A DNA stretch of 64,000 nucleotides from positions 2,728,908 through 2,792,907 of the forward strand of contig CP096137.1 in assembly GCA_023213235.1 (NCBI GenBank), given 5' to 3'. Position numbers and translations under genes: made by a program. Of this stretch, positions 2,981-38,428 are shown one piece after another. Within the stretch, counting starts at the first letter, position 1. Each line of letters opens with the position of its first letter. The notes beneath the pieces are model-generated. The model was given only the letters and a program-made list of their open reading frames with translations. It made no database searches and was not told the DNA's origin. This DNA comes from Elusimicrobiota bacterium (GTDB lineage Bacteria; Elusimicrobiota; Elusimicrobia; UBA1565; UBA9628).

Positions 2981-4139
2981 GCGGCCACCTTGGCGGCGGC
3001 GCGCAGCTTCTGCACGATGGCCGGCAGAATTTTGAGGAGCCGGTCCGCGTCGGCGTCCGTGCTGCCCCAGCCCGTCGAGACGCGCAGGGAGCCGGTCGCG
3101 ACCTCGGGCGGCACGCCCATCGCCGTCAGGACGTGCGACGGGGTCGACGCGCCCGAGGAGCACGCCGGCCCGCTCGAGACGCAGACGCCCTCGAGGTCGA
3201 GGGCCACGACGAGGTGATGCCCGTCGAGGCCGTCGAAGCTGAAGTGCGAGGTGTTCGGCAGGCGCGCGGCGCCCGCGCCGTTGAGGCGGACGCCCGGAAG
3301 ACGCAGCACGCCGGCCTCGATCTTGCCGCGCAGCGCGAGCGCGTGGGCGTGCGCGGAGGACAGCTCGCGCGCGGCGAGCTCGCAGGCGAGGCCGAAGCCG
3401 ACGATCGAGGCGACGTTCTCCGTGCCCCCGCGGCGGTTCTTTTCCTGGTGGCCGGTGACGAGCGGCGAGAGCCGGACGCCGCGGCGCACGTAGAGGGCTC
3501 CGACGCCCTTCGGGGCGTTGACCTTGTGGCCGGACACGGCGACGAGGTCGGCCCCGAGCGCCTTCGCGTCGAGCTTGAGCTTGCCCAGCGACTGCACCGC
3601 GTCGCAGTGCGCCAGCGCCCCGGCCGCGCGCGCCGCGGCGAAGACCTCCGCGCAGGGCTGCAGGACGCCCGTCTCGTTGTTGGCGTGCATGACGCTGACG
3701 ACCGACGTCGCGCCGTCGATGAGCGACTTCACGGCCGCGGCGTCGGCGGCGCCGTCGGCGCCGCAGCCCGCCTCGGCGACCTCGAGGCCGCGCCGGCGCA
3801 GCTGCCCGGCCAGGACCCGGATCGCGTCGTGCTCGATCCTGGTGGTCACGACCTTGCGCCGCGCCCCTTGGTCTCGTCGAAGGCCTGCCAGGCGCCGCCC
3901 GCGATGGCGAGCGCGTCGGACTCCGAGCCGCAGGAGGTGAAGACGATCTCAGACGCGTCGGCGGCGCCCAATACCGCGGCGACCTGCTCGCGGGCCTTCT
4001 CGACGGCCGCGCGCGCGCGCTGGCCGAGCGAGTAGGTCGAGTTCGGGTTGCCGTAGCCCTCGCGCAGCCACGGGAGCATCGCGTCGACCACCTCCGGGCG
4101 GACGGGCGTCGTCGCGTTGTGGTCGAGGTAGGCCGTCAC
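2977..4139 (-). CDS. iscS: cysteine desulfurase (IscS/NifS class), frame broken once
   Basis: The N-terminal part [21 protein letters not shown]...NPNSTYSLG...[11 protein letters not shown] lies at the C-end of ORF 3846-5600. The remainder (TTRIEHDAI...[19 protein letters not shown]...[17 protein letters not shown]) is ORF 2977-3849. Join near 3860-3870. The GTG start overlaps the stop of the upstream lipoprotein gene (GTGA). Confidence 0.85.
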
Positions 4140-4843
4140 TGTCCGAAGCCGAAGCCCTTGAAGAGGTCGTCGCCGCCGGCGGCCTCTCCGGCCGGCTTCG
4201 GCTTCTCGACGGGCTTGGGCGGCTCCGCTCCGGGCAGGGGCGCGGCCTTCGCGGCGCCCTTCGACGTCACGGGCGACACGACGGTCTTGCGCACGCCCTC
4301 GGAGAAGATGATGCGGCCGTTCTTGCGGTCGTAGTAAAGGCGGAACTGGCTCTGCTTGGTCTGCGGCTCGTAGGCCTTGCCGAGGTTGTCGCGCTCCTGC
4401 TCCCAGCCGGGGTTGTAGAGCATGCGGCCGCGGATGTCGACCTTCTTGGAGAGGATCGGCAGGGAGAAGCGGATGCGGTAGAAGCCGTTCGTGTCGGAGA
4501 CGCCGGGATCGAAGGACGAGGTCGCGAAGCCCGACGGGCGCGCCTCGCCCTCCTCGAGCGTGTTCTCGCCGCTGGCCACCGCGCGCACGACCACGCCCTG
4601 CACGGGGTTGTCCTGGTAGTCGGTGATCACGCCCTGAATGTAGCCGTCGAGGAACTGGGTCTTCTTCGGCGTGGAGAACAGCAGGAACTCCGAGGTGCCG
4701 GTGAGCTTCTCGGTGATCGACAGGTCGACGATGCGGCCCTCGGCGAAGTCCTCGACGACGACGTTCTTGTTCGAGGGGCCGCAGGCGGCGAAGATCGCCA
4801 GGAAAGCCAGGGGAACGAGGCGGCGCATGCGATATTCTATCAT
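4136..4843 (-). CDS. lipoprotein with carboxypeptidase-regulatory-like beta domain
   Basis: [17 protein letters not shown] lipobox. [12 protein letters not shown]...[11 protein letters not shown] resembles the CarboxypepD_reg pattern. Pro/Lys-rich tail. The start overlaps the inferred motB stop (ATGA). Confidence 0.55.
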
Positions 4844-5600
4844 TCGTTCCCCCCGGTCGTGGGAGGAGCCGCCGACGGAGAATCCGGATTCTCGAGAGGC
4901 GCCGCGGGCGGCGCGGCGGGCGCGGGGCGGCGGCCGCCGGCTCGGGCGGGAGCGCCTTGCCGTCCTTGTCGGTCTTCTTGATCGACTGGCTCTTCACGAA
5001 GATGACGACGCGGCGGTTCTTCGCGCGACCCTCGGGCGTCGCGTTGTCGGCGACGGGGCGGTTGCCGCCGTAGCCGACGGCGCCCAGATTCTTGGCCGGC
5101 ATGCCGTACTTCTCGATGAGCAGGCGGGCGACGCTCGTCGCGCGAGCGGTCGACAGCTCCCAGTTCGAGTCGAAATAGTCGTTGTGGATGTTCTGGCCGT
5201 CGGTGTGGCCCTCGACGAGAATCTCGTGCTCGGTCGCGAGCTTGGCGAGCGCCGGCGTCAGCAGCGCGAGCTTGTCGTCGATCTCGGGCGTCGGCTCGGC
5301 CGCGCCGGAGCCGAAGAACGAGACGCCGCCCTGCTCCTCGATCGAGATCTTGAGGCCCTCCTTGTCGATCTTGACCTCGCCCTTCATCTGCCCCTTGTCC
5401 ATCATCTCCTTGATCTGCTCGTTGGCCTTCTGAACGTCCTTGTTCAGCGCGGCGGAGAGCGCGTACAGGATGACGAAGAAGCACACGAGCTCGGTCATCA
5501 GGTCGGCGTAACAGACGACCCAGGCGGGCGCGGGATGGCCGACTTTCGCGACCTTGGGGTCGCTCTCGTCGATGAAGCCCTTCGGCGCGCGCATCGGCAT
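4840..5600 (-). CDS. motB: MotB-like stator subunit with OmpA-type peptidoglycan-binding domain, tail frame probably broken
   Basis: N-terminal plug/TM with the conserved Asp ([21 protein letters not shown]). OmpA-like LVEGHTDG...[17 protein letters not shown]...GYGGNRP...NRRVVIFV. In the frame of ORF 4840-5484 the Pro/Ala tail ends TTGGNE* with an ATGA overlap onto the next gene. Join near 4925-4935. Confidence 0.8.
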
Positions 5601-5609
5601 GGGTTTTCC

Positions 5610-6427
5610 TTAGGCGGCGGCGGCCGGCGCGCCCGGGCTCCCGGGGCCGGCGGCCCCTTGACGATCAGCCGCTTCGACGGCGGCAGGTACGCCTTGAGGT
5701 TGGCCTCGACGACGGACGGCGTCGCGCCGCTCTGCAGGAGCAGCACGCCGCGGATGATGATCTCCTTGATCAGCAGCTCCTCCTCGGAGCGGGCGCGCAG
5801 CTTGCCGCCCATCGGCAGGAAGATCAGGTAGCCGGAGCCGAGGCCGTAGAAGGCGGCCGAGAGGGCCAGCGCCATGCGGCGAGGGACCTGGGCGACGTCG
5901 TCGATCGAGGACAGCATCATGATCATGCCGAGCACGGTGCCGATGATGCCGAAGGCCGGCGAGTAGGTGCCGAGCGCGTTCAGGATCTCGGCGCCGCCCT
6001 TGTGCCGCTCGCGGATGAAGCCGATCTCGGTCTCCAGCATGTTCCGGATGAACTCGTGGTCCGCGCCGTCGACGACGAGCTGGACGCCGCGGCGCAGGAA
6101 GTCGTTCTTGATCCCCTTGAGGTCGTTCTGCAGCGCGAGAAAGCCCTCCTTCTTGGCCTTCTGCGAGAGGTTCACGAAGGTCACGACGATCTCGGAGGTG
6201 TCGTCGTCGGCGTGCGACAGCAGGGTCTTCTTGATGATCTTGCCCACGCCGATGACCTGGGCGAGCGGGTAATTGACGAGCGTGGCGCAGAACGTGCCGC
6301 CCATGACGATGAACACGGCCTCCATGTTCATGAACGGCTTGAAGCCGGCCACGCCTTCGCTGTGAAAGATCATGAAGACGGTCAGGCCGAAGAACGTGAA
6401 TATGCCGGCTATCGTCGCGATGTCCAT
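5610..6427 (-). CDS. motA: MotA-like proton-channel stator subunit (MotA/TolQ/ExbB family)
   Basis: Four-TM layout. LKGIKNDFLRRGVQLVVDG, YSPAFGIIGTVLGMI, ALALSAAFYGLGSGYLIFLPMGGKL. ORF 5498-6427 would overlap motB by 100 nt. An alternative frame ends AAAA-TAA at 5610-5612, 9 nt before the motB ATG and next to an AGGAAAA RBS, so a tail frame break near 5650 is inferred. Confidence 0.8.
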
Positions 6428-6442
6428 GAGGGGTTCGGCTCC

Positions 6443-9048
6443 TTAGCTCTTCTGCCTTTCGTAGCAGCCGATCGGGTTGACGGGCTTGCCCGACGTGTTG
6501 ACGGCCTTGCGGTATTCCACCACTTTCGCGACGACCTCGTCAGCCGTCTCGCGGACGGCGATCTTGTTGCCCGTGGCGAGCAGCAGCAAGGTCTCGTGGC
6601 CGGTCTCCATCGTCTCGATGAGCTCGGCGTTGACGACGACCGCCGTTCCGTTGAGCTTATGCAGGGTTATCACCGCCGCCTCCCTGATCCTTTTGAAGAG
6701 CTTGTCCGCCCACGACTGCTTGCGGCACTCCTCGAGCTTCGCGCCGAGGTCCGCGGCCTCGCCGCGGGCCGCGTCGAGCCCGGCCTGCAGCTCCGCGGCG
6801 CGCCGCTCCGCGTCGGCCGCCGACTCCTGCGCGCGCATCGCGTCCGCGCCGAGGCGCGCCCGCTCCGCGGCGATGAGCTCCTGGGCTTCCGCGCGCGCCG
6901 CCGCGGCCTCCTCGCGGGCCGCCTGCATCGCCGCCTCCGCCTCGGCGCGGGCCGCGGCCGCCGACTCCGCGATCCTGCGCTCGGCGTGCGCCGCCGCGTC
7001 GTCGGCGCGGGCGCGCTCGGCGCGCAGCGCCGTCTCGTGCTCGGCCTTCTGCGCCGCGAGCGCGCGGCTCAGCTCCGCGCGCGAGGCCGCGAGCGCCTTC
7101 TCGGCCTGCTCGCGCGCGTTCTGCAGGATCTTGCCCGACTGCGTCTCGCGGGCCAGCTGAAGGCGCGCCGACTCGAGCGCCTCCTGCGTGCCGGAGACCT
7201 GGGCGGCCTGCGCGGTCGACAGCCGCTCGAGCTCGGTCTTCTCGGCCTCGAGCTTCGCCTTGTCGGCTTCCGCCGCCGCGACGCGGTCCTGGAACGCGCG
7301 GATCGACGCCTGCTGGGCGCCGGACTGCTCGCGCAGCCCCTCGAGCTGCTTCTCGAGCTCGAGGCGGTCGCGCAGGGCGTTCGTGCGGGCGTCCTCCTCG
7401 CGGGACAGCTTGCCCGCGAGGTCGTCGGCGCGGGACCGCTGCGCGATGACCTCGGACTCCTTGGCGAGCAGGCGCTCGCCCCACGACGCGTCCTTCTGCT
7501 GCAGCTCGCGGCGCAGGCGCTGGAGTTCCTGCTCCGCCTGCAGCGCGCGCGCGTCGGCCTCCGCCTGCATCGCGTGGCGGCGCTCGGCGAGCTCCTGCTC
7601 GAGCTCGGCGCGCAGCTTGGACTCGAGGCGCTTCGCGTCGTGCTCCGCCTCCTGGCGGAGCTGGTCGGCGATCTTGGCGGCGCGCTGGTTCAGCTCGTCC
7701 TGGGCCTGGACGCGCAGGCGCGTCTTTTCGGCCTCGACCATCTGCAGCGAGGACTGCGTCGCCTCGGCGCGCACCTCCTTCTCGCGCTCGACCCACTTGC
7801 GCTGGAGGACCACGAACTCGGCCTTGTAGCGTTCCTGGGTCTTCTCCCATGAAACGGCCTGACGCCGCATCTCGTCGAGCTGGGCGCGCGCGGCGGCGCC
7901 CTGCCGCTCGAGAGCGCTCGCGACGGCGCGCAGGCGCGTCAGTTCGGACGTCGCCTTCTCCGCGGCGTCCCGATGCTTGACGAGCTCGGCTCCGTGCTCG
8001 GCCTGGGCGCGGCGCAGGTTGGCCTCGTGCTCGCCCTCGAGGCGCTGCTTGATCGACGCGAGGTCGCGCTGGAGGCGCTCCTGGTCGGACATCAGGCGCT
8101 CCTCGCGCTCGCGCGAGCTGTGCCGCAGGGCGGCCAGGTCGCGCTCGAGGCGTTCCTGAACCAGCGCGGCCTGCTGCCGCGTCAGCGTGAGGTCGGCGCG
8201 CAGCTGGATCGACTCCTTCTCGCGGTCCGACGCGGACTGCAGGCGCGCGACCGCCTCCGCCCTCTCCTGCAGGACCTCGGTCAGCCGCTCATCGAGAATC
8301 TTGCGCTCGGCGACGGCCTTCGTGAGCTCGGCGTCGGCGCCGCGCAGCTTCTCGGCCAGCGCGCGAAGCGTCCGCACCTCGTCGTCCTTGGCGAGCGCGG
8401 CCTTCTGCCACTGCGCCTTCTCCTCGAGCCAGCGCCGCTCCATCTCCTGCAGGCGCATCGCGAAGTGAGTCTCGACCTCCTTGTCCTGGGACTCGCGCGC
8501 GGCGAGCTGGCTCTTGAGCGTCGTGACCCACGTCTCGCGCTCCTGGGCCAGGCGCGCCTCGAGCTCCTGCGCCTTGCGCTCGAGCTTGAGCTTGACGTCG
8601 GCGGCCTCCTGGTCGGCGCGGTCGCGGCGCAGGCGGTCCTGGAGCTCCTTGAGGGACACCTCGACCTTCGCGGCCGTGACGTCGTCCTCGCGGCTGCGCA
8701 TCTGGGCGAGCAGGGACTTCTCGCGCTCCTCGGAGACCTTCTTCTCGAGCTGCTCGAGCTTGGTCTCGAAGTCGGCCTTCATGCGCTCGATCTTCTCCTC
8801 GCGTTCCTTCGAGCGGTCCGGCGCGGCGGCGGGCGGGGCGCCGAACGACGGCGGCGCGGGCGGCGCCGAGAGGGCCGGCGCGCCGAACGAGGGCAGCGGC
8901 GGCAGAGAGGGGCCTTGCCGGCCATTCCGGGCAGCGGCGGAGGCATGGGAGGCTTGCCGGCCGAGGGCGGCAGCGGCGGCGGCACGGGCGCGCCTCCGCG
9001 GCCCGGAGGGAGCGGAGGCGGCGGCGGGAACTTGTCGTCAGCGGCCAT
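6443..9048 (-). CDS. polyproline N-terminus + ~650-aa coiled coil + C-terminal FlbD domain protein, frame broken once
   Basis: ORF 8779-9048 (MAADDKFPPPPPLPPGRGGAPVPPPLPPSAGKPPMPPPLPG...) continues after a shift near 8905-8915 into the frame of ORF 6443-8782 (...PPLPSFGAPALSAPPAPPSFGAPP...). This is followed by E/R/A/L/Q-rich heptad-like sequence. The last 70 aa (ITLHKLNGTAVVVNAELIETMETGHETLLLLATGNKIAVRETADEVVAKVVEYRK) match the FlbD family pattern. AAGGAGAG RBS before the ATG at 9048. Confidence 0.7.
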
Positions 9049-9072
9049 GATGTTCTCTCCTTATGATGCTCG

Positions 9073-11116
9073 TCACGCGCGGGCCTTCATGCCGTCCACC
9101 CACTGCCGAAGACCCGGATCGGGGTTCGACAGCAGGACCTGCTCGAATTGCGCGACCGCGTCGTCCTGCCGGCCGAGCTGAACGTAGCAGTTCGCGAGGT
9201 ACTGGCGGCCCTGCCAGTTCCCCCGTCCAGCGACAAAGCGTACTCGAGATACTGCGCCGCCTCTTGAAAACGTCCGGCGTCGTGGTACTGCTGGCCGGCC
9301 GCGAAATAGGGCTTGGCCGCCTCCGCCTGCGCCGGCTGGGGCGCGGGAGGCGCGGGAAGAGCCGGCGCGCCGGCGCCGGTCGGCGCGGGCATCGCGCCGG
9401 CCTGGCCGCCCCCGCGTTGATGAGATTGGCGACGGCCTGCTCGGCCGCGCGCGTGCGCGGGGCGTACTTCTCGCCGCGCTCGCTGGCGACCTCCTCGTGG
9501 AAGCCGGAGAAGGCGTCGCCGCGGCTCTGCCGGACGTTGACCTTGCCCTCCTTCTCGAGCACCTTCACGACGTCCATGATCTTCGAGCGCTCCTCCTCGA
9601 TCTGCGCGGGCGTGAGCCCCGACGCGTACTCGATCGACTCCTTGAGCAAAGACGCCGCGCCGGCCGACATGTTCGAGAGAAACTTGTTGACGACGTCGGG
9701 CGCCGCGCCCTGGAGGGCCTTGGCCATCGACTCGGTCTTGAGCTCGCGCACGATCGTCTGCATGTCGCGGTCGGGGAACGTGACGGCGTCCTCGAACGTC
9801 AGGATGAACTTCCGCACGCGCGCGTAGACGTCGGGCTTCTCGTTCTTGAGGTACTCGAGGATGTTGGCGCGCGTGAGCGTGTCGGCCTCGTCGAGCATCT
9901 GCGTGAGGCGCTCCATGCCGCCGACGACGAAATCGACGGACTCCTTGATGTCGGCGTCGATGGCCATCAGCTGCTCGCGCGTGACCTGGCGGATCTTCAG
10001 CGCCTCGATGGCGATCTTGGCCTGCAGCTCGACGGGCAGGGACGTCAGCGTCGCGCGCGCGATCTCCGGCTTCAGGTAGCTCAGCACGACGGCGACGAGC
10101 CACGGCTCGTCCTGGCGGACGAGGAAGAGGTTCGCCAGACGCTTGAAGTTCTCCTCCGTGATGTAGGTGAAAGGCTCGAATTTCTTCATGGCATCCTCGT
10201 CCTCCTCCGTCGGAACGATCGGCGGCTCCGGCGGCTTGCGCCCCAGCATGATGTCGAGCTCTCCTTTGGAAAGCTCCTCCAGCGTGTCGTCTCCCTCGTC
10301 CTCGCCGTCCTTGCCCTCGTCCTCGGGCGACTTGTTGAGGACCTCGTACTCGCCCTTCTTCGCCTCGCGCAGAGCGGAGACGTACTGGCGGAAGAAGCGC
10401 GCGAGCGGCCCGAACAGGAAGGACAGGAACAGCAGCAGAAGCAGAGCATAAAGCAGCGGCAGGTAGACGGAGGGCTTCTTGAAGTCCTCCTTCCAGTCCA
10501 CGAGCGGCGGCTTGTCGAACTTCGTCGGCCGGAACGCGACCTGATCGGGAGCGAGCTTGTACTGCGCCATCGCGTCGACGATGCGCTCGCGCACGAGGTC
10601 GAGCCGCTTCTTGTCCTTGACCGGATCGAGCACGAGGTCGTCGTGGATGACGGTGACCTGGAAGCGCTTGAACACGGGCTTGAGCGAGAACCGCTCCTCC
10701 TGCACGCCCTTCATCTGCTGGGCCTGCTGGGCCTGGCTCTGCTCGGGCCGGTCCGGCGTCTCCGGGCCCTGGGTGATCGTCTTCGGCTTCGGGATGCCGG
10801 GCAGCACGAAGGTCGTCTGCATGCCGCCCTTGGGGCCCGGCGCCTTCTCCTTGTACTTTTCGGCCACGCCCATGCCGGAGCGCTGGGACTCCTCGCTCTC
10901 GAGCTTGATCTCCATCTCCACGTCGACGAACGGCGACGCCTTGCCCTTGCCGAGGATCGGGTCGAGCACGTCGCGCGCGATCTTGAGTTCGGAGTCGGCC
11001 TTGATGTGGTTCTGCTGCTCGAGCAAGGTCAGACTGGGAGCGACGACGCCCGCCGCGGCCCGGCCGGCGGCCAGGACGGACGACAGAACGAGGACGGCGA
11101 AGACGGGCGCGCGCAT
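9073..11116 (-). CDS. FliF(C-terminal ring part)-TM-FliG(middle+C domains)-TPR fusion protein, frame broken twice
   Basis: Signal peptide. ARDVLDPILGKGKASPFVDVEMEI and FKRFQVTVIHDD resemble the FliF RBM3/collar region. TM VYLPLLYALLLLLFLSFLFGP. FliG-like DEPWLVAVVLSYLKPEIARATLTSLPVELQAKIAIE, ILTFEDAVTFPDRDMQTIVREL, FLSNMSAGAASLLKESIEYASGLTPAQIEEERSKIMDVVKVLEKEGKV. TPR tail AAKPYFAAGQQYHDAGRFQEAAQYLEYALSLDGG / NWQGRQYLANCYVQLGRQDDAVAQFEQVL is recovered by shifts at G-runs near 9410 and 9214. Stop TGA at 9073-9075. Confidence 0.7.
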
Positions 11117-11173: not shown

Positions 11174-12727
11174 TTACTGCCGTATGGACTGGAGGAATTC
11201 CCGGACGCTGCGGTTGTTCGGGTCGATCTCCAGCACGCGGCGCCACACCGCGACGGCCTTGTCCTTCTGGTCCATCAGGAAGAAGGCCGAGCCCATGATC
11301 TCGAGCGCCGTCACGTTGTTGGGCTCGAGGTCGAGGACGTCCTGCGAGCGGCGCACGGCGGCGTCGTACTTGCCGTCGTAGATGGACTGGCGGGCGTCGA
11401 AGACCTTCTGGTCGATGAACGTGAACTGCTCCGGGCCCTCGAGGCGGCGGGTCGCGTCCTGGACGCCGGCTTCGCGTTCGACCATGTTCAGCAGGCCGAG
11501 GAGCTTTTCATCCCGGGGGTTCTTATTGAAAGCGTAGCGCAGCGCGTTGACGGAGACCTTGAGGTCGCGGCCGTCGACGTAGGCGATCGCGCCGCGGCGG
11601 ATGAAGGTCACGTACTCCTCGCCGCCGGTGGCCTGCGGGACGAAGTTCGTCACGTTGCCGAGGCGCGCGATCATCTGCGCGACCTGCTTGTTGCCGGGCG
11701 CGGCGTCCTGCGCCTGGTTGAAGCGCTGGGCGGCGAGCGCGAAGTTGCCTTCCTGGAAGGCCTCCATCGCCTGCTTGATGAAGTTCTTGACCTGGGTCGT
11801 GGAGCGGTCCGTGCGCGACTGGCCGAAGCGGAAGCTGACCGAGAAGCGCGTCGAGGAGCCGAGGTCGTGGATGCCCTGCGCGACGTCGAGCGAGAAGCTC
11901 TTGAAGTTGAGGCCGAAGCCGAAGTCGGTCTCCTGGATCTGCGGCAGCCCCAGCAGGCCGAAGCGGAACGCGAACCAGCGCGACACCCAGTACTCGCCGC
12001 CGAAGCGCAGGTCGGTGCTGCCGTTGAGGACCTTGTTGATGTCGGCGGCGAGCGTCAGGCGCTCCTTGAACAGGCGCAGGGAGTTGCCGAGCTTGATGAC
12101 GACGGGCAGCTTGTCGTCGGTGTCGCCGGTGCGCATCGCGAAGACGTTCTGCATGCCGAGGCCCAGGCGGTAGGCGCTGCCCATCTGCTTCATCGCGCCG
12201 ATGTCGAGCGTCTTGAAGTTGTCCGACGAGCCGCCGAGCTTGCGCGTGACCTGCTTGAGGCCCATGCCGAAGCTGACGGTCTCCGTCACGTTCTTGCCCC
12301 AGGCGAAGCCCATCGCCTGCTGCTGGTCGGCGAACGAGCCGCCGGCGGTGATCGACGCCGGCTCGTTGGTCGCCGGGTTGAGGACCACGTCGACCTGCTC
12401 GAAGCCGGTGTTCGCGAGCTGGGTCATGTGCAGCGCGAAGGTGGAGCCGCCCTTGGTCGGGTATGCGAAGCTGAAGTAGGTGAGCTTGGTCTGCTGGAAG
12501 AGGGTCGCCTGCATCGTGGTGACCTCTTTGCGCTGAACCTGGGAGAGGCCGGCGGGGTTCCAGTAGGCGGCGGAGGCGTCGTCGGAGATCGCGTAGTAGG
12601 CGCCGCCCATCGCGAGCGCGCGGCCGCCGACGCCGTAAGTCAGGAACGCGCCGGGTTGGCCGCCGCTGCCGGTTTGGGCGCCCGCCGCGGAGGCGAGAAG
12701 CGCGATAAGAGCGCACGCGCGCGCCAT
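11174..12727 (-). CDS. outer-membrane beta-barrel (PorV/FadL-like N-terminal motif) with C-terminal TPR domain
   Basis: Signal MARACALIALLASAAGAQ. GGRALAMGGAYYAISDDASAAYWNPAGL is the motif I associate with PorV/UPF0164-type barrels. Alternating beta pattern up to ...FSVSFRFGQ. TPR-like C-terminal 200 aa (DGKYDAAVRRSQDVLDLEPNNVTALEIMGSAFF...). The start was chosen at Met24 of ORF 11174-12796. Confidence 0.6.
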   Translation of the reverse strand: MARACALIALLASAAGAQTGSGGQPGAFLTYGVGGRALAMGGAYYAISDDASAAYWNPAGLSQVQRKEVTTMQATLFQQTKLTYFSFAYPTKGGSTFALHMTQLANTGFEQVDVVLNPATNEPASITAGGSFADQQQAMGFAWGKNVTETVSFGMGLKQVTRKLGGSSDNFKTLDIGAMKQMGSAYRLGLGMQNVFAMRTGDTDDKLPVVIKLGNSLRLFKERLTLAADINKVLNGSTDLRFGGEYWVSRWFAFRFGLLGLPQIQETDFGFGLNFKSFSLDVAQGIHDLGSSTRFSVSFRFGQSRTDRSTTQVKNFIKQAMEAFQEGNFALAAQRFNQAQDAAPGNKQVAQMIARLGNVTNFVPQATGGEEYVTFIRRGAIAYVDGRDLKVSVNALRYAFNKNPRDEKLLGLLNMVEREAGVQDATRRLEGPEQFTFIDQKVFDARQSIYDGKYDAAVRRSQDVLDLEPNNVTALEIMGSAFFLMDQKDKAVAVWRRVLEIDPNNRSVREFLQSIRQ

Positions 12728-12804
12728 GGCCTCAACGGGCACCAACGCGCGCGCGCAGCGCACAGGGGACGAGCCCCTCGCAATTTTAGCGGGCATGACT
12801 ATTC

Positions 12805-12969: not shown

Positions 12970-13050
12970 CGACCAGTGTAACGGAATTGTGTCGATTGTC
13001 AAGGCCTCGGGTCTGGACAACCCGAACCCGTCCTGATACACTCCGGGAAC

Positions 13051-13724
13051 ATGAGCGCTCCGGACGAGGAGGTCCAGGAAAGCCGCAAGAAGCGCACCTA
13101 CCTGCTTCTGGCGGGCGGCGCCGCCTCCCTCCTCCTTCCTTTAGCCGGCGTCGTCTACATCAAGGTCAACGAGAGCAAGGCCGCTCGCGCCCCGGGGCAG
13201 GCGTCCTCCGTCTTCGACCGCCGCGAGGGCGGCGACGCCAAGGTCGTCGTCACCCAGACCGTCACGATCAACCCGGCCGTCGCCGCTTCCGCTTCCTCCC
13301 TGCCGGTCGGCGGCGGGACGACCGAGGCTCCGTCGGGCTCGTCGCTCGATTTCGTCAAGGGCGGCTCGAACGCCTACTTCCAGGACAAGGATAAGGCGGC
13401 CGAGCCGCCGAAAGCCTCGACGCCGACCCCCGCCGCGGCCTCCGCGCCGGAGCCCGAGCCGGAGCCGGTGAAGGCCGCCGGCAAGGGCGGAAAGAAGGCC
13501 TTCGTCATGCCGCGCCTCTCGGGCACGAAGAGCATGGCCGGCTCCAACTTCAAGGGCTCGGGGGCTCGCCGAAGCCGGGCGGGATGGCGGGGATGGCGGG
13601 CGTGGCCGACCCGCAGTCGGGCAAGGGCGGCCAGGACATGGCCGACATGCTCAAGAACATCCCCGGCGGCATCAACAACCCCGAAGTCCAGAAGCTCATC
13701 CAGAAGAACAAGGCCAAGAAGTAG
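13051..13724 (+). CDS. membrane-anchored Ala/Pro-rich protein of unknown function, frame broken once
   Basis: N-terminal TM YLLLAGGAASLLLPLAGVVYI and a low-complexity periplasmic part. After a G-run near 13562 the plausible continuation is ...SPKPGGMAGMAGVADPQSGKGGQDMADMLKNIPGGINNPEVQKLIQKNKAKK*, with TAG at 13722-13724. The rest of ORF 13051-14241 is Arg/Ser-rich read-through over the next gene. Confidence 0.5.
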
Positions 13725-13730
13725 CCCGGC

Positions 13731-14584
13731 GTGCGCCACCTCCTCCTCGCGGCCGCCGTCCTCTGCCTCTCCCTGCCCGCGCTGTTCATCCGCTTCGCCG
13801 CCGCGCCCATCGAGGCGATCGGCTTCTGGCGCCTCGCGCTGGCCTGCGCGGCGCTGGCCCCCTTCGCGTGGCGCCGCCGCGCCGCGTGGACGCCGGCCAA
13901 GGCCCGCGCGACGGCCCTGGCCGCGGCCTGCTTCTTCCTCCACCTCTGGACCTTCACCTGGGCCGTCCGCCACACGACGGTCGCCAACCTCATGCTCGCG
14001 TTCTCGACGCATCCGCTGTGGACGGGCGTCGGCGCCTGGCTGCTGTTCGGCGAACGTCTCGGCCGCCGGGAGCTGGGCGGCCTGGCGCTCGCGGGCGCCG
14101 GAATGCTCGTGCTCTTCGGCGGCTCGGCGCGCCTCGGCGGCTCCGGCCTGGCCGGCGACCTCTCGGCGCTCGTCTCGGCGATCACGTTCTCGGGCTGGGT
14201 GCTCGCCGGGCGCGGCGTGCGCCGCGGCCTCGACAACGTAAGCTTCCTCCTTGGCGCCTACGGCGCGACCGCCGCGTTCTTCCTCCTGCTCGGCGCCGCG
14301 CGCGGCTCGCCCATGACGGGCTACCCGCCGGCGACGTGGGCGGCCCTCGCGGGCCTGGCCTTCGCCGTGAGCCTCGGCGGCCACGGCCTGTTCAGCTACC
14401 TGCTCAACGAGTACGGAGTCCTGACGCTTTCCTGCGCCAAGCTCGTCGAGCCGGTGCTCGCGGCGCTCGGCGCGTTCTGGCTGTTCGGGGAGCCGCTGTC
14501 CCCCGCCTCGGCGCGGCCTTCGCGCTCATCGCCGCGGGCGTCCTCGTCCTCCTCCAGCGCCGAAAAACCGACATCGAAGCGTGA
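13731..14584 (+). CDS. EamA/DMT-family transporter, frame broken near the C-terminus
   Basis: About ten hydrophobic helices and two EamA-like halves (...LFGERLGRRELGGLALAGAGMLVL... and ...LFGEPLSP/RLGAAFALIAAGVLVLLQRR). The C-terminus is recovered from the frame of ORF 13868-14584 by a shift at C-run 14499-14504. Confidence 0.75.
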
Positions 14585-14630
14585 CGGCGCCGTGATGGGA
14601 CGCCGCCGCCTCCGGCGCTAGACTGAGGGC

Positions 14631-15508
14631 GTGAGAAGCGCCTTCCTCCTCGCCGTCCTGCTCGCCTCCCCGCCGGCGCGGCGACCGTCCTGCTCAAGGA
14701 CGGCGGCCGGCTCGAGGGCCGGGTCATCTCCGCCGGGGAGACCGAGGTCGTCGTCGAGACCGCCGCCGGCGTGCGCCGCGTCGACGCGGCCCTCGTGCGC
14801 GGAATCGAGTACGAGGCGCCCGCTGCGCCCGCCCCGGCGGCCCCGCCCGCCTCGGCCGCCTCCTCGACTTCCGGGCCGCCGGACAAGAACGTATTCTCCC
14901 TCGCCTTCGGCCTGGGCGCGCCGCTCGACGACGTGGGCTTCGGCGCGGTCGGCGGCGGCACGGCCAACGACGGCGACATCGGCCCGCTGCTCGGCGCGCG
15001 CTGGCTGCGCGAGCTCGACGGCAAGCTCGCCCTCGGCGCGGACCTCGAGTACTTCCACCGCGGCGCGACGAACTCTCCCGGCCTCCTTCCGCTCGCGAAC
15101 TCCTCCGTCAGCGGCGACAACTTCCTGTTCATGGGCGTGGCGCGCTGGTACCTGACGGAGCGCGGCAACGCGCGGCCCTACGTGCTCGGCGGAGCCGGCG
15201 TCTCGCGCTCGTGGACCCGCGTCGACTCCGCCCCGCGCCCGGGCTTCGCCTGGACCGACACGAACACCGACGAGGCCCGCCGCCTGATCGACGACGGCGC
15301 GTGGGCGCTCGCGGGCACCGCGCGCGCGGGAGTCGACTTCGGCTGGGAACTGATGGGCCCCGCGCTGTTCGGCCTCGAGGCGGGCTACACCTGGCTGCAG
15401 CGCCGCCGCTTCGAGGCGACGCCCGCCGGCCGCGACCTCGGCCTGACCGGCGTCGACGGGGCGCTGCGCGTGTTCACGTTCGCGGCGCGGTGGAGCTGGC
15501 GATGGTGA
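14631..15508 (+). CDS. secreted / outer-membrane beta-barrel-like protein, frame broken once
   Basis: Signal MRSAFLLAVLLASP. A shift near 14668-14672 joins it to the frame of ORF 14771-15508 (TVLLKDGGRLEGRVISAGETEVVVET...). Alternating aromatic/Gly pattern with a terminal ...FTFAARWSWRW, typical of OMP C-termini. Confidence 0.55.
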
Positions 15509-16397
15509 GGATCACCTTCCGCCTTCTCGCCCTGACCTCGCTCGCGCCGCTGCTCGGCGCCGTCGGCATCGGCCCGCGCCGCGACGACGGCGGCGGCCGC
15601 CGCGAGGAGCGGAGCGAGGACCGGACCTCCGCGCCGGCGCCCGCCGCGCCCGCGCATTCGGGCCCCGGGCGCGTCGGCATCCAGCGGCGCGAGCCCTCCG
15701 GCTCGTCCTGGTCCGGCCCGTCCGGCTCCCACGCGCCGTCGGCCGCGCCGGGACGAGTCGGCATCCACCGCTACGACGTTCCGCATTCGTCCTACCGCTC
15801 CGGCAACCGGTACCGCCGCTGGCACGGCGGCGGCGCGAATTGGCACGGCTACTACGGAGGCTCGCGCTGGTACTGGACGCGGCCCTACAACGGCTACACG
15901 TGGTGGTACGACGAGCCGTACGGACGCTGGGCCTGGTGGCACGGCGGACATTGGTGGCACGCCGGCCCCGGCGGCGCGGCCGTCGTCTACGTCCAAGGCG
16001 CCCCGCCGCCGCCAGTCGCCGTCGAGGCCTCGCCCGCCGCGACGCCGTCCGGCGACCCGGGTCCGTGGACGAGCCCGAGCGGCCGCCGCCTCGTCGAGGT
16101 CGTCGGCGAGGACCGCCAGGCGATCCTTTACGACAAGACCGGGCCCGCGCCCGCCTACCTGCGCCTGCTCGGCCGCGGAGCGTCGAAGGTGCGTTTCTCC
16201 AAAGCCGGCGCGGGGACCTCGATCATGGTCGAGTTCGCCGACGGCACCTTCGCGCTGTTCGACGAGGACGGCAAGCCGCTCAACGCCGAGGCTCATGCCC
16301 CCGCCGTCGCCGTCCCGGCGGCGTCGACGACGCCGGTGAAGATCCCCGCTCCTCCTCCCCTCCGCCGGGCGACCTGCCTCCGGCGCCCGCCGAATAG
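15502..16397 (+). CDS. secreted Trp/Tyr/Gly/Arg-rich protein of unknown function, frame broken near the end
   Basis: The ATG at 15502 overlaps the previous stop. Signal MVRITFRLLALTSLAPLLGAVG. Striking segment WHGYYGGSRWYWTRPYNGYTWWYDEPYGRWAWWHGGHWWHAGPGG. The C-terminus PPPGDLPPAPAE* (TAG 16395-16397) is reached by a shift near 16355-16360. Confidence 0.5.
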
Positions 16398-16484
16398 CGG
16401 GACGTCGCGGCGGGACTTAGGGCCCAGCGCGACACGGGCCCTCTACCCCAGGCCCCCGGCCGGCCACGCGGGCATACTGGGGGC

Positions 16485-16945
16485 ATGAAGAATGTCCTCG
16501 CCGCACTCGCGCTCGCCGTTCTCGCCGCGCCCGCCTTCGCAGGCGGCGAGGCGGTCGCCCAGTTGCGCGGCGCCGCCGCGGATCACCGAGCCGGCGCGAC
16601 GTCCTACGACGGCGGCTACGCCGGCGAGGAAAGCGGGGCCATTGCCGGCCGGCGCACGCCGGAGCAACTCCCCACCTTGTCCGGAGTCGTTCCCACCGCT
16701 GCGGTCAAAGCGCCCGAGAAGGCCGAAGTGCCGAAGCCGGACTGCCCCCGTGCCCCGACGACCGCCCGTGGTACAAGAAGCCCCTCAACATAGGCCTCGG
16801 CGCGGCCGCCGTCGGCGCGGCGATCGGCGTCGCCGCGGCTCCCGTCGCCTTTCCGCTGCTGATCTGCGCGGCGGTCGGCGCCGCCTACGGCTTCTTCGCC
16901 GGCTTCTGGGGCGGCAAGTTCGCCGAGAGCCGGGGCTGGCTCTAG
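16485..16945 (+). CDS. small secreted protein with C-terminal Gly/Ala-rich membrane helices, frame broken once
   Basis: Signal MKNVLAALALAVLAAPAFAG. After about 16745 the third frame gives PWYKKPLNIGLGAAAVGAAIGVAAAPVAFPLLICAAVGAAYGFFAGFWGGKFAESRGWL*, ending at 16945. Confidence 0.45.
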
Positions 16946-16946
16946 C

Positions 16947-17498
16947 TCAGCGCTTCCGGCGCCAGCACGCCTCGTCGTGGTCGTCGACGAGCCCGCACGC
17001 CTGCAGGAACGCGTACATGATCGTCGAACCGACGAAGTTGAACCCGCGCTTCTTGAGGTCCTTCGAGAGCGCGTCGGACTCCGGCGACGTCGCGCGGTAA
17101 GGCGCGCCCTTCTTCCTCACAATCGTCTTTCCGCCGGTGAAGGCCCAGACGTATTTATCGAAAGACCCGAACTCCTTCTGGATCGCGAGGAAGGCCTTCG
17201 CGTTCTCGGTCGCGGCCGCGATCTTGGCGCGGTTGCGGATGATGCCGGGATCGCGCAATTGGGCCGCATGCCGAGCCCTGTCATATCGCGCGACCTTTCG
17301 CGGGTCGAAGCCGTCGTAGGCTTTCCGGTAGCCTTCGCGCCGGCGCAGGATCGTGATCCACGACAAGCCGGCTTGCGCCCCCTCGAGGATCAGGAACTCG
17401 AAGAAAGTCCTGTCGTCGTGGACGGGCACGCCCCACTCGCGATCATGATAATCGCAGTAGAGAGGGTCCGTCCCGGCCCAGGCGCAGCGGGTCTTCAG
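16947..17498 (-). CDS. tag: DNA-3-methyladenine glycosylase I
   Basis: Only the last ~183 aa of ORF 16947-20522 make sense: [48 protein letters not shown]...[20 protein letters not shown]. The start is probably a non-ATG codon (CTG) overlapping the sucD stop, so it is uncertain. Confidence 0.8.
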
Positions 17499-24357: not shown

Positions 24358-24624
24358 TCACCCTTTCTGCCACTTTGCACGCAGCTTTTCGATGTCGAAC
24401 TTCATTCGTCGAGCCAAGGCGTAGAGTCGTTCCTTCTGGTTCTGTGGAATCGCCAGCCCTTCCATCTCGATGTCATATAGAAGCCCATGCACGACCAACC
24501 CCGGCTCGCCGACACTAAGATACTCGGCGTAGGATTTCGTGGCATTTTCGTCCAGAAGAGCCCGTATCCCTTGGAAGACATTCTCGGTTTCCTGATGAAT
24601 TGTTCGTATTTCGTCGTTGGTCAT
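24358..24624 (-). CDS. putative cognate immunity protein of the EndoU toxin
   Basis: The ATG at 24624 (MTNDEIRTIHQE...) forms an ATGA overlap with the toxin stop once one A is added to the A6 run. 88 aa, helical and cytoplasmic. The upstream 21 codons of ORF 24358-24687 lie inside the toxin gene. Confidence 0.55.
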   Translation of the reverse strand: MTNDEIRTIHQETENVFQGIRALLDENATKSYAEYLSVGEPGLVVHGLLYDIEMEGLAIPQNQKERLYALARRMKFDIEKLRAKWQKG

Positions 24625-27308
24625 TTCTGTTTTTTGGATATGCGGTGACAACTTCGCCGTAGTTCGGGTCCTTCGGTCCCTCGACAATAACTTTTATTGA
24701 AACACCGTCGCGAATGCCCTCAACGCCGATACGCCGGCCTTTTTCCTGAGTCACCTTTGATCCGGGATCAGCAAGAACACTCTGGATATTTTCCTTAATC
24801 TTCGAGCCATCCCATCCTTCAGGAAATTCGGATTTCCCCTTCCCTGCGCCCGCGCGGTGACCTCCGCCGTTGTCATCCCCGTCCAAAATATGGACAAGAC
24901 CGTGATCCGTGATAAAAGGCTGAAAATTCTCAAGATCGGCGACGGTCTTGGGAGGAACCTTCTCTCCCGTCTCCGGCTTAGTGGGTTCCGGAGCTTCAGA
25001 ATGCCACGTGCCCTCCGGCAGCGGCCGCCCGTTCTCCCCGAGATTCGGACGACATTGCAATTCACCGGGCGCGCCTCTCAACTCTTTGACGCCGTCGCAC
25101 GGACGATCCATGACGTCCACCAAGAGCTTTTCCATCATGCCAAGCAAAGACGCGCTGAGCGTCACACGATCCCCTTTGATCACGTACGGTTCGGGGTCCC
25201 CGGTATCGATAGTTTTGTCCAGGCCGGGCGTGTCCGTCCCCGTCATCGGCCGCTTCTCTTCCTCGATGACGAGCTTGTCCTGCGATCCTTCGGCTCGTTC
25301 CTTGAGCGTGGCGATCGGATCGCTCTTCGCCGGAGTCCGCTTCACCCGCCCCGGCGTCTTCTGTCCCCGGCGCCGTCGCGCCTCGTCCTCGAGCGAATCG
25401 AACGTGCGGTCGCCCTCGACGAGGATCGCAACGCACTTCACGCTCGCGATTCCGCCCGCGTCCGTGGTTCCCGGCGGGCACGTCAGCTTCCCCGCCGGCT
25501 TGACCGTGAACGAGACCAAGTGCCCCGCCTTGCTCCCCTCCGTGCCGGTGAAGCCGACCGTCGCGACAGTCTCGAGTTCCTCGCCCTGAGCGAGCGACGA
25601 CCGCGACACGGTCAATGATAAGGAAGAAGGCTTGAGCGGATCTGGCGGAGGTTGAGGCGCCTGGGCCGCGCGGGAACTAGGCCGATTGTCGATGAGCAGG
25701 TCCGCCGCGCTCGACTTCGATTTCTTGGAGAACAGTTTGCCAATCCCGCGAAAGAGCTCCGAGATGCCTTTAATGAGGAGTTGCGCCCCGAGTTGGCCAA
25801 GCGCCTGGCCAAGTTCCGCGCTCCCGTTGTTGGAGGAGTAGGAGGAAGAGCCGCTGGAATAGCTCGGCGAGGGACGTGCGCTCGGGCCGCCGCAGCGGGC
25901 CACGCACACTCCCGGAGGAGTCGGTGGAGGCGGCGGAAGAGGCTTGATGTACCAATTATGGTCGGCGTTCCCCTGCATGAGGCCGCTCGCCTCCGTGAGG
26001 CCGCTCGGCCCGGCCTTGGTGAGGACCGACGCGGTGCCCGCCGTCTCAATCATCTCCGGCGCCGCCGTCAGTTCGACCTCTCCGTCGAGCCAGCGCGCCA
26101 CCGTCGTCGCCGGAACCGCGACGGGCCAGAAGCCCTCGTCGGTATCGGCCGGCCGCGAGACGAGGACGCCCGCGAGCGCGCCCGAGCCGTCGAGCACCGG
26201 CCCTCCCGTGAACTCGGCCGAGATCGCGGCGTCTGTCTGGAAGGAGACCGCGCCCGACTTCACGACGAGGCCCTCGGTCTTCGTCCAGCGTCCCGCGACG
26301 AGGTCGTGGCCGACGGCGGAGACGAGCTCGTTCTTCGCGGGATTCGTCTTTGCGAGGACGAGCGCCGGCGTCTTGTCGTCGCCGGTGAAAGAGAGGATGG
26401 CCAAGCCCAGCGTCGCGTCGCGGCGCAGGACCGTGGTCGGAATCTCTTTGTTCCGAGAATGGAGCTTCGGCGCATCCCCTCGACGGCGCGCGCGTCGGTG
26501 AGAAGGACCAGCTTCCCGCCGACGCGGACAAGCGTCGCCGCCGCGCGGCGCGAGCCCTCGACGAAGTAGACGGCGGCCGTCGCGTCGGCGCCGTCGGCGC
26601 GGGACGCGAGGACGACGGTCCCCGCGCCGTGCGAGGCGGCGAGGTCCTCGAAAGCGTCGGCTCGCGCGCAGTACAGCTTCGAGCGCGCGGCGCCGACGGC
26701 CTTGTCGGACGCGAGCGCCAGCGTCAGCCGGCGGACTTGCGCGCGGCGGCGGGCGTAGGCGCCCTCGTCGAGCTTCTTGGAGGAGGAGGCCTGATCGAGC
26801 GCCGCCTCGGCGGATTTCTTGGAGACGCCGGGCCCCAGCAAGCTGACGAGCCACGGCGCCGCGGTCCCATCGGCGTTCCGGAAGAGGCCGTCGCTCGCGG
26901 AGAGCAGCTCCGCGCGCTCCTTGTCCGCGTCGCACGGCGGCTCGGGGAAGCGCTTGGCCCAGGTGTAGTCCACGACGGCCAAGGTGCGGTACAAGGTGCG
27001 CAGGCTCGTCGAGCGGTCGCGGAAGAAGGGGCGGATCGCAGGAGCGATGCGCGGCTCGAGGCGCACGAGCGACTCTTTGACCTGCGACTCGTCGCGGAAG
27101 GACTCGAGGCCCTCGGAGAGGAGTTGGAGATCGGCCTGGAGCCCCGCGAGGCCGTTGGCGTCGCCCTCCCCTCGGTTTTGGCCGCCGCTTCGTCCGCGGG
27201 CAGCACGGCCGACGTCAGGAGGGTCCAGAGCGGGTCGGAGGTCGTCTCGGCGCGGACGGGGAGCGACGCCGCGAGGAGGAGCGCGAGAACCGCCCTCGTC
27301 CTCTTCAT
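24621..27308 (-). CDS. secreted polymorphic toxin: trypsin-like domain, Pro/Ser linker, beta-rich repeat region, C-terminal bacterial EndoU-type RNase domain; frame broken three times
   Basis: Signal MKRTRAVLALLLAASLPVRA (ORF 26724-27308). Joins near 27168 and 26477 link it to ORFs 26260-27066 and 24515-26935. Protease-like FTGGPVLDGSGALAGVLV (Thr where Ser is expected). C-terminal HILDGDDNGGGHRAGAGKGKSEFPEGWDGSKIKENIQSV...GIRDGVSIKVIVE...VVTAYP matches my memory of the EndoU_bacteria toxin family. End inferred as ...AYPKKQK* at 24621-24623. Confidence 0.75.
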
Positions 27309-27324
27309 AGCCCGCCCCCTCGGA

Positions 27325-28041
27325 TCAGCGCAGCTCGAAGACCATCGTCGTCGCGCCGCAGTCGATCATGTCGCCTTCCCTGAGGACGACCGAGCCCGAG
27401 ACCTTGGCCCCGTTGACGACGGGATAGCCCTCGGTCACGGCGACGAGGACGAAGCCCTCGGGCTTGCGGTGGACGGAGGCCGCGACCTCGGGAGCGGAGC
27501 CGAAGAGGCCGGAGCCCTTGATCTGGATCTGCACGCGGTCGGACTTGCCGATGTAGGTGGACATGCCCTTGAGCTCGAACTCGGAGGTGCCGTCGGCGGC
27601 GCCCTTCAGGACGCGCAGCCAGCCGATCTTCTCCGGGCCCGCGGGTTTGGCGGCGGCCGCGGAGGCGGCGATGAGCTCGGCCTGCTTCTGGGGCGTGAGG
27701 ACCATGGTCTTGTCGGAGCCGGCGTCCGGTCCGCCGCCGGCGGCGGCGAGCTCGGCCTCGTTGAGGAAGACGAGGGCGTGCTTGGCGAGGCCGACGACGT
27801 CGTTGTGGTGCAGGCCGGACTTCTTGATCTTCTTCTCGTTGACGAAGGTGCCGTTCGTGGACTCGAGGTCCTCGATGTAGTAGCCCCCGCCCTCGAGCGT
27901 GAGGCGGCAGTGGTGCCCGGAGATCGCCGGGTTGTCGATGACGATGTCGTTGTCGTCCTTGCGGCCGACGGTCAAGGAGGGCTTGTCGAACGCCACTTCC
28001 TTAATGACGGCCGCGTTGAACTTCAGCAGCAGCTTCGGCAT
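27325..28041 (-). CDS. double FHA-domain protein
   Basis: N-terminal FHA: LTVGRKDDNDIVIDNPAISGHHCRLTLEGGGYYIEDLESTNGTFVN. A second FHA-like half: TYIGKSDRVQIQI...VAVTEGYPVVNGAKV...LREGDMIDCG. Confidence 0.85.
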   Translation of the reverse strand: MPKLLLKFNAAVIKEVAFDKPSLTVGRKDDNDIVIDNPAISGHHCRLTLEGGGYYIEDLESTNGTFVNEKKIKKSGLHHNDVVGLAKHALVFLNEAELAAAGGGPDAGSDKTMVLTPQKQAELIAASAAAAKPAGPEKIGWLRVLKGAADGTSEFELKGMSTYIGKSDRVQIQIKGSGLFGSAPEVAASVHRKPEGFVLVAVTEGYPVVNGAKVSGSVVLREGDMIDCGATTMVFELR

Positions 28042-28065
28042 CGAAGTCTCCCTTTGATCCTAATC

Positions 28066-28886: not shown

Positions 28887-28890
<4 letters not shown>
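28066..28890 (-). CDS. PP2C-family Ser/Thr protein phosphatase
   Basis: MKTKDRVEVAGATDPGCVRKNNEDNF, VVADGMGGHNSGEVAS, GTTVVAAIV, VAHVGDSRLYL, LLATDGL, DNISIVAA. The ATG at 28890 overlaps the kinase stop (ATGA). Confidence 0.9.
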
Positions 28891-32082
<3,192 letters not shown>

Positions 32083-38350: not shown

Positions 38351-38428
38351 GGGGCCGTGGTGTAGCTGGCCTAACACGCCGCCCTGTCAAGGCGGAGATC
38401 GCGGGTTCAAATCCCGTCGGCCCCGCCA
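38351..38428 (+). tRNA. tRNA-Asp (anticodon GTC), CCA encoded
   Basis: GGGGCCG-TG-GTGT-AGCTGGCCTA-ACAC-G-CCGCC-CTGTCAA-GGCGG-AGATC-GCGGG-TTCAAAT-CCCGT-CGGCCCC-G-CCA. All four stems pair, with one G-T in the T stem. Confidence 0.9.

Follow-up and report, generated by a model that had tools for sequence, protein, structure and literature searches.

Flagellar rotor and stator parts appear to be reused in a non-flagellar operon of Elusimicrobiota

We analysed a 64,000-nucleotide stretch of the genome of an Elusimicrobiota bacterium (NCBI GenBank assembly GCA_023213235.1, contig CP096137.1, positions 2,728,908 to 2,792,907 of the forward strand), which is called the window below and is numbered from its first letter. 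On its minus strand, at 9073..11116, lies a gene that encodes in a single polypeptide a homologue of the third ring-building motif (RBM3) and beta-collar of FliF, one transmembrane (TM) helix, the middle and C-terminal domains of FliG, and a tail of tetratricopeptide repeats (TPR). The gene stands in an operon with motA, motB, an FlbD gene and a gene for an outer-membrane barrel. These findings point to flagellar rotor and stator parts that are reused in a non-flagellar operon, an arrangement that is undescribed at this level as far as our searches show. To our knowledge, the flagellar torque module, which consists of the MS-ring, FliG and MotAB, has so far been studied only around the type III export apparatus.

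A preprint that deals with magnetotactic Elusimicrobiota (10.1101/2022.07.08.499144) reports that most free-living Elusimicrobiota are without flagellar structural genes yet carry motAB, flbD and fliG, the role of which it calls 'unclear'. The preprint is silent on a fusion, on a FliF-like domain and on a PorV-like partner. Our search of the literature for this architecture in Elusimicrobiota, for FliG together with PorV or with type IX secretion (T9SS), and for non-flagellar FliG returned just that remark, which is made at the KEGG level, and a fusion known from Chlamydia.

Results

The fusion gene and its reading frame

As assembled, the minus-strand open reading frame (ORF) at 9038-11116 starts with an ATG at 11116 and encodes 692 aa, the last ~125 of which are out of frame and form Arg/Pro-rich nonsense. 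In the run GCGGGGGCGG (G5, 9409..9413), where a first base has been lost, the true reading changes from frame 0 to 2, and at GACGGGGGAAC (G5A2, 9218..9224), the site of a second 1-base deletion, it changes from frame 2 to 1. With one base restored at each site, the gene encodes a 681-aa protein that ends at the TGA at 9073-9075. A preliminary description of the window had proposed one polypeptide after two G-run corrections, and the repaired gene bears this out with coordinates of exactly 9073-11116. All of the peptide strings quoted there are present, namely LDPILGKGKASPFVDVEMEI (residues 51-70) and FQVTVIHDD (152-160) in the periplasmic part and DEPWLVAVVLSYLKPEIARATL, FEDAVTFPDRDMQTIVREL, NMSAGAASLLKESIE and AQIEEERSKIMDVVKVLEKEGKV in the FliG-like part. 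An intact orthologue mapped onto the window occupies frames 1, 3 and 2 in turn, with breaks that coincide with the runs at 9409-9413 and 9218-9224. At the second site the G5A2 of the window is one base shorter than the G5A3 of its closest relative (L005).

The corrected protein aligns with more than 100 intact orthologues of 650-690 aa from metagenome-assembled genomes of Elusimicrobia/Elusimicrobiota at 56-89% identity and 96-100% coverage. These orthologues carry the same Pfam set, TPR tail included, so that the database search for the same domain order, which the preliminary description had called for, was answered positively. For counts of conservation we used 80 loci, the best 80 of 200 relatives from a scan of one genome per species, all 80 of which are from Elusimicrobiota. 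In 79 of them a single stop-free ORF runs across the periplasmic, TM and FliG parts, between which a genuine stop had been considered. Purifying selection on the fusion gene is strong: in comparisons of the window with five relatives, the ratio of nonsynonymous to synonymous substitution rates (dN/dS) is 0.09-0.15 overall, 0.10-0.18 in the periplasmic domain and 0.02-0.05 in the FliG domains.

One-base losses also break the FlbD gene (at about 8905), iscS (at about 3865) and the stop codon of motB. Because losses of this kind occur in these neighbouring conserved genes, the shifts in the fusion gene are most plausibly homopolymer errors from long-read assembly and not signs of decay. A programmed frameshift was rejected, since the shifts are deletions relative to the relatives and the neighbouring genes are broken alike. 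Frame breaks are numerous in conserved genes at 3846-9420 and 13000-17100, including several ORFs at 13-17 kb, and the 3' end of motA is probably also frame-broken. The frame breaks of the window are consistent with an unpolished long-read assembly of a genome of ~70% GC.

Domain layout

The protein begins with a signal peptide (residues 1-23; 11048..11116), read from the sequence as MR, a hydrophobic core and GRAAAG; the hydrophobic region is of the same kind across orthologues, and its sequence is not kept. The periplasmic domain follows (residues 22-215; 10472..11053), with ILDPILGKGKA, a long beta hairpin, the conserved loop LPGIPKPK, and KRFQVTVIHDD, a helix and VAFRPTKF. A single TM helix (about residues 216-241; 10394..10471) is recognized from the sequence and from the alignment, in which LFGPL...F..Y is invariant. 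The Arg/Lys-rich residues after this helix place its C-terminal side, by the positive-inside rule, in the cytoplasm. An acidic, low-complexity, Pro-containing linker (about residues 242-312; 10181..10393), identified in sequence and alignment, is thus predicted to be cytoplasmic, and it stands where the flagellar proteins have the FliF C-terminal peptide and FliG_N. Next come the FliG middle and C-terminal ARM domains (residues 313-530; 9527..10180), a Pro/Ala linker, and two TPR motifs (corrected residues 601-668; 9115..9317), which form a cytoplasmic C-terminal tail conserved in orthologues. The preliminary description had this layout largely right: the signal peptide, TM helix, acidic linker and Pro/Ala linker stand, while its periplasmic part of ~230 aa shrinks to a mature part of about 190, and its two to three TPR motifs become two by Pfam.

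The FliG domains

Pfam matches on the corrected protein are FliG_M at residues 332-393 (E 2e-9; 38 bits, cut-off 25), FliG_C at 422-527 (E 2e-23; 83 bits, cut-off 23.3) and the two TPR at 601-668; residues 1-330 have no Pfam match. In a search of PDB sequences, residues 313-530 match FliG_MC of T. maritima with E 6e-31. By sequence comparison, then, the identity of the middle and C-terminal FliG domains is unambiguous, and the proposal of FliG-like rotor domains in the same polypeptide holds. A possible identity with MgtE_N was rejected (E 7e-5 vs 2e-23 for FliG_C).

We mapped residues onto E. coli FliG from MG1655, with FliG counts over the 80 loci and, for the stator genes below, MotA counts over 65 and MotB counts over 57. 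The Gly-Gly linker is kept (VGGME in the window), and VGG is conserved across orthologues. FliG_N is absent: homology starts at about FliG residue 104-118, and a weak Pfam match to FliG_N overlaps FliG_M. The FliM-binding EHPQR motif is replaced by D/E-E-P-W ... E (DEPW...E in the window), and in this region the positions of Q128 and R160 are W and E, respectively, in 80/80 loci. The torque helix of the window protein reads NMSAGAASLLKESIEY.

The periplasmic domain

An AlphaFold2 model built from a 68-sequence alignment (pLDDT 80.5) consists of a helix, a 27-residue strand, a loop, a 29-residue strand, a helix and a strand. The predicted fold is that of an RBM whose first two strands run out into a long hairpin (residues 60-86 and 131-159), which in this monomer model is compatible with a collar. 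When the model was compared with the PDB by Foldseek, FliF S-ring or RBM3-collar chains took all of the first 18 places (E 2e-9 to 1e-5); they come from Salmonella and Vibrio and from a FliF model of the Bacillus type. Rank 19 was SpoIIIAG (E 3e-5), and the next match came only at E 0.08. This model supersedes an earlier one from a 15-sequence alignment, in which the insertion was poor (pLDDT 64) and FliF matches had E 4e-5 to 1e-2.

Profile-profile comparison agrees with the fold search. Using hhalign, we aligned an 81-sequence family profile with an 11-sequence FliF profile made from E. coli and plasmid-borne fliF genes, and obtained 177-179 collinear columns on E. coli FliF 226-446 only (probability 79-89%, P 3e-6 to 2e-5, score 44). 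Control scores were 13.3 for the RBM1-2 region of FliF, 12.7 for a reversed profile and 7.7-14.6 for twenty column shuffles. Motifs of the family and of FliF that pair in the alignment are ILDPILGKGKA with ILSPIVGNGNI, LPGIPKPK with GVPGALSNQP, and KRFQVTVIHD with QRLSVAVVVN. In nine orthologues of the Endomicrobiia branch, Pfam YscJ_FliF_C (PF08345) matches end to end (1-147 of 147) with 25.5-28.2 bits (gathering threshold 23.8). The window's own periplasmic domain gives no FliF or SctJ match in Pfam, even at E 10, and the family profile searched against all PDB sequences gives chance matches only. Since fold search, profile-profile comparison and Pfam matches in orthologues agree, we conclude that the periplasmic domain is a homologue of FliF RBM3 and beta-collar, as had been suspected from its FliF-like strings.

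The protein had also been said to lack RBM1/2 and the FliG N-domain, and we found the same. RBM1 and RBM2 have no Pfam match (YscJ_FliF), the hhalign score against this region of FliF is at noise level, and the mature periplasmic part has only ~190 aa. Likewise, the FliG_N-binding peptide of FliF was not found in the alignment or in the PDB sequence search, in which the TM helix and acidic linker lead directly to FliG_M.

A profile search of 1.84 billion representative proteins returned just 98 relatives, so that the family is narrow. These relatives comprise full-length fusions, stand-alone secreted copies and three copies fused to MotA/ExbB-type channels. The three channel fusions (P0150, P0167 and P0137) include both domain orders, and their Pfam MotA_ExbB scores of 27-35 bits are above the cut-off.

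The operon and its stator genes

The fusion gene lies in an operon, on the minus strand, whose genes were missed by the preliminary description and matter most for function. All 80 related loci, with identities down to 44%, keep the order barrel with TPR, fusion, coiled coil with FlbD, MotA, MotB as far as their contigs extend. Upstream of the fusion, at 11174..12796, NCBIfam, Pfam and synteny identify a gene for an outer-membrane beta-barrel (residues 51-324) with a C-terminal TPR. The barrel scores 104.2 bits against NCBIfam NF033709, the PorV/PorQ family (cut-off 90), and falls below the equivalog models for PorV, PorQ and PorV2.

Downstream of the fusion, at 6443..9048, Pfam and synteny identify a gene that encodes a Pro-rich N-terminus, a ~700-aa coiled coil and a C-terminal FlbD/SwrD domain (6500-6670; Pfam FlbD 61.5 bits), and that is broken by the deletion near 8905. 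FlbD/SwrD is normally a stand-alone protein of ~60-70 aa; in the window it is the C-terminal end of a Pro-rich coiled-coil protein of ~865 aa. SwrD/FlbD forms hexameric rings, with MotA as a predicted, unvalidated partner (PMC13232269). In an Endomicrobiia locus (L093), tblastn finds no match to the window's FlbD domain in the coiled-coil homologue, and a second, 1604-aa protein with coiled coil and TPR is present.

MotA (5498..6427) is of the flagellar-stator type by Pfam, NCBIfam and key residues, and is closest to flagellar stators, with E 3e-51 to MotA of C. sporogenes. MotB (4950..5600), identified by Pfam, residue mapping and NCBIfam, has a plug, the equivalent of Asp32 and an OmpA-like peptidoglycan-binding domain; its stop is the one lost to a frame error in the window. 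The NCBIfam equivalog cut-offs are missed (215 vs 340-394). Residues important for the stator are kept: P173 and P222 of MotA in 65/65 loci, and D32 of MotB in 57/57. At the rotor-facing positions of MotA, K stands for R90 in 65/65 loci and Q for E98 in 52/65. Of the classical rotor-stator charge pairs, one is thereby retained, between MotA K92 at the R90 site and E493 at the FliG D288 site, and the other pair is neutral on both sides, with FliG R281 replaced by G (79/80) and MotA E98 by Q. A strict covariation of charge between MotA and FliG was rejected, since E98 is found in 12 of the 65 loci despite the missing FliG arginine.

A sixth operon gene (4136..4843), recognized from its sequence and from related loci, encodes a 235-aa lipoprotein. 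It is present in 58 of the related loci and has no Pfam match, and in about 45 loci its extreme C-terminus reads [DE][DE]DLFKGF[GD]FG[QP]. The motif FKGFGF also occurs within an inserted loop of the stand-alone RBM3-like paralogues P0135, P0144 and P0163. We regard FKGFGF as a candidate short ligand motif, which one of the TPR domains may bind.

Among the window ORFs searched with Pfam there was no further flagellar gene, and none was noted in the ±8 kb flanks of the 80 loci, which were compared only with the operon genes of the window and among themselves. A giant co-oriented ORF whose end lies just upstream of the PorV-like gene occurs in 22 of 71 loci and also in the Endomicrobiia locus, which is AT-rich. 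Its product has 17,141 aa in the Endomicrobiia contig L093 (1-7241) and at least 2,019 aa in L046 (2-6058). The window's own clade instead has a divergent membrane-anchored gene at this place (13051 to about 14241, plus strand).

Elsewhere in the window, minus-strand genes at 24515-32082 form a signalling or toxin-like cluster that has no relation to the rotor fusion; their products are a protein of 806 aa with trypsin-like and EndoU nuclease domains, an FHA protein and a protein of 1338 aa with CHASE2, Ser/Thr kinase and PP2C domains. At 38351-64000, a tRNA-Asp gene (38351-38428) is followed by a serine recombinase gene (38407-40122, minus strand) and a stretch of lower GC (53-61% vs ~70%) that encodes KaiC-like, Hsp70-like, AAA, helicase-like and NACHT-like proteins, and that is probably an integrated element or defence island.

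Discussion

The gene probably encodes the rotor subunit of an envelope machine that is driven by MotAB, is non-flagellar and is conserved across Elusimicrobiota. In such a machine, the RBM3/collar domains would assemble into a periplasmic ring, as in FliF, and this ring would carry an equal number of FliG_MC domains beneath the membrane as a torque ring. The covalent link would replace the joint between the FliF C-terminal peptide and FliG_N. We propose that peptidoglycan-anchored MotA5B2 conducts protons, because the MotB aspartate and the MotA prolines are kept, and that it would push the FliG C-terminal domain and so turn the ring. The motor is probably not switched by CheY, since the FliM-binding motif is gone and no fliM or fliN was seen nearby among the window ORFs and flanks as compared. 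With RBM1/2 missing, it would hold no type III export gate or rod. The suggestion of the preliminary description that this is a simplified rotor with no need of the export gate appears to fit both the operon and the literature.

What such a rotor might drive is more speculative. The periplasmic ring may hand on its output to the FKGFGF-tailed lipoprotein and to the TPR domain that the PorV-like barrel carries, and this output may serve to move or secrete surface proteins of very large size whose C-terminal domains are T9SS-like, as in gliding-type motility or adhesin handling. Taken together, the locus might encode a previously unrecognised envelope rotary machine, in which a FliF-collar/FliG ring without a type III secretion core is turned by MotAB, is coupled to a PorV-like barrel, and drives gliding-type movement or the secretion of giant adhesins; it could have arisen by exaptation after the loss of a flagellum, or be a surviving relative of a pre-flagellar rotor-stator module. 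We offer this fuller picture only tentatively, as a possibility.

Several observations weigh against a rotor of this kind. The FliG torque helix has lost four of its five charged residues, with R281 replaced by G in 79/80 loci, K264 by Q, D289 by S/I/A and R297 by T/S (E. coli numbering), and only D288 is kept, as E in 80/80. On the intact orthologue P0004, the NCBIfam FliG equivalog TIGR00207 scores 100 bits vs a cut-off of 226.7; judged by this score, the protein is one that contains FliG domains and is not a FliG orthologue. Charge covariation between rotor and stator is loose, because MotA E98 persists in 12 of 65 loci without FliG R281. The RBM3-like domain may serve a purpose other than ring building, because it is also fused to MotA/ExbB-like channels. 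The Endomicrobiia locus has no motAB within 10 kb, and the C-termini of the giant ORFs are only weakly similar to T9SS-sorting or FlgD-Ig-like domains, with all T9SS-CTD similarities below curated cut-offs. Finally, ring formation and rotation are what we infer from homology only.

The strongest alternative is a static docking platform, in which a fixed ring or smaller oligomers would recruit and activate MotAB via FliG_C, and the stator would act in the manner of ExbBD/TolQR to energise the PorV-like protein for transport or secretion. The loss of most torque-helix charges speaks for this explanation, as does a partner that is an outer-membrane barrel of a secretion-associated family; moreover, the fusion of the RBM3-like domain to MotA/ExbB-type channels in paralogues suggests a role that is stator-associated and not rotor-specific. 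However, MotB retains a peptidoglycan-binding domain and plug, like the stators of flagella, where the stator itself is the fixed element. The A pentamer turns around B in all 5:2 motors of solved structure that we know of, so that whatever binds the cytoplasmic face of MotA is pushed. In addition, FliG_MC is the most strongly conserved region of the protein (dN/dS 0.02-0.05), and its Gly-Gly hinge is kept. We therefore regard a static platform as rather unlikely.

The protein could instead belong, in divergent form, to a true flagellum, the remaining genes of which would be located elsewhere in the genome. The window covers 64 kb of a 3.8-Mb contig, its MotA, MotB and FlbD are flagellar-type, and complete flagellar gene sets occur in a few Elusimicrobiota genomes (10.1101/2022.07.08.499144). 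This is improbable, however, for a protein without RBM1/2 for an export gate, without FliG_N and without EHPQR for FliM, in an operon whose partner is a PorV-like barrel. The comparison of window ORFs and flanks, limited as it was, turned up no other flagellar gene, and the trio motAB/flbD/fliG is reported in genomes without flagellar structural genes (10.1101/2022.07.08.499144).

Two further explanations are poorly supported. A decaying remnant or pseudogene of a lost flagellum would account for the two frameshifts of the window copy, but is very improbable given that iscS, motB and the FlbD gene share single-base homopolymer deletions, which points to assembly error, that dN/dS on the window lineage is 0.09-0.15, and that more than 100 orthologues are intact. 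An anti-phage defence system like Zorya, which is built on MotAB homologues, is scarcely credible: PADLOC matches MotB to ZorB models, a generic MotB similarity, yet finds neither a ZorA match for MotA nor ZorC/D/E-like proteins, and MotA is nearest to flagellar stators in an operon that lies among housekeeping genes and is conserved across the phylum.

One of the closest known counterparts is the joint of the flagellar MS-ring and C-ring, where FliF (RBM3 and beta-collar S-ring, TM2) is bound 1:1 to FliG and driven by MotA5B2. Our protein shares with this joint a periplasmic domain that is homologous to FliF 226-446 and has the same fold, a TM helix directly after it, like TM2, FliG_M and FliG_C with a Gly-Gly linker, a FliF:FliG ratio of 1:1, and adjacent flagellar-type MotA, MotB and FlbD. 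In contrast to the flagellar joint, the two parts are linked covalently, without the FliF C-terminal peptide/FliG_N joint and without RBM1/2 as a seat for the export gate; EHPQR is absent, no fliM or fliN lies nearby, and four of five torque charges are lost. Added are a C-terminal TPR and a PorV/PorQ-family barrel as partner, in place of rod or hook genes.

The novelty of the fusion as such is qualified by a natural FliF-FliG fusion already described in Chlamydiaceae (Bergeron 2016, PMC4768692). There, too, an organism that has no flagellum encodes in a single polypeptide periplasmic ring-building motifs of the FliF type, a TM helix and a cytoplasmic domain like that of FliG. The chlamydial protein has ~330 aa and combines RBM2 and another RBM-like segment with nothing of FliG but a FliG_M-like region; it is believed to act together with the injectisome, and no MotAB partner is described (PMC4768692). 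By this description it is set apart from the protein studied here, in which RBM3/collar is the only FliF ring part, FliG_M and FliG_C are both present, a TPR tail is attached and the neighbouring genes are MotAB and FlbD. In Salmonella and Vibrio, engineered or mutant proteins in which FliF and FliG are fused still assemble S-rings (e.g. PDB 8z4d/8z4g; PMC11481574). The chain of such a fusion in the PDB matched our query by sequence in its FliG part and our model by fold in its FliF S-ring part. Unlike our protein, which is naturally truncated on both sides of the joint, these fusions combine full-length FliF with full-length FliG in a complete flagellum.

Two other systems are similar in part. 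The SpoIIIAG ring of the sporulation channel, the sole fold match outside FliF, has a ring-building RBM fold with a large beta insertion; it differs in ranking, when compared by fold, below all 18 FliF chains and in having no FliG or MotAB context. The Bacteroidota T9SS/gliding apparatus consists of a GldLM/PorLM 5:2 motor, a PorKN ring, PorV/PorQ barrels and giant adhesins of the SprB type. It resembles our operon in its proton-driven 5:2 motor of the inner membrane and its outer-membrane barrel of the PorV/PorQ family and, in part of the family, in a giant adjacent protein with a CTD-like end. It differs in that the operon has MotAB and a FliG/FliF-type rotor in place of GldLM and has CTD similarities below cut-offs; no PorK, PorN or SprA homologues were seen in the loci.

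If the rotor reading is true, the fusion would be a minimal version of the torque module, with ring and torque domains on one chain, no seat for an export gate, no FliM/FliN interface and another partner in the outer membrane. A rotor-stator pair would then be able to work as an independent module, which bears on how the flagellum was assembled in evolution. Since one gene should build the whole rotor, it would also be a simple structural target. For the organisms themselves, the operon is a concrete candidate to explain how Elusimicrobiota that are free-living and non-flagellated move or handle their surface proteins; these Elusimicrobiota include the magnetotactic ones, and their motility has been called enigmatic in the literature.

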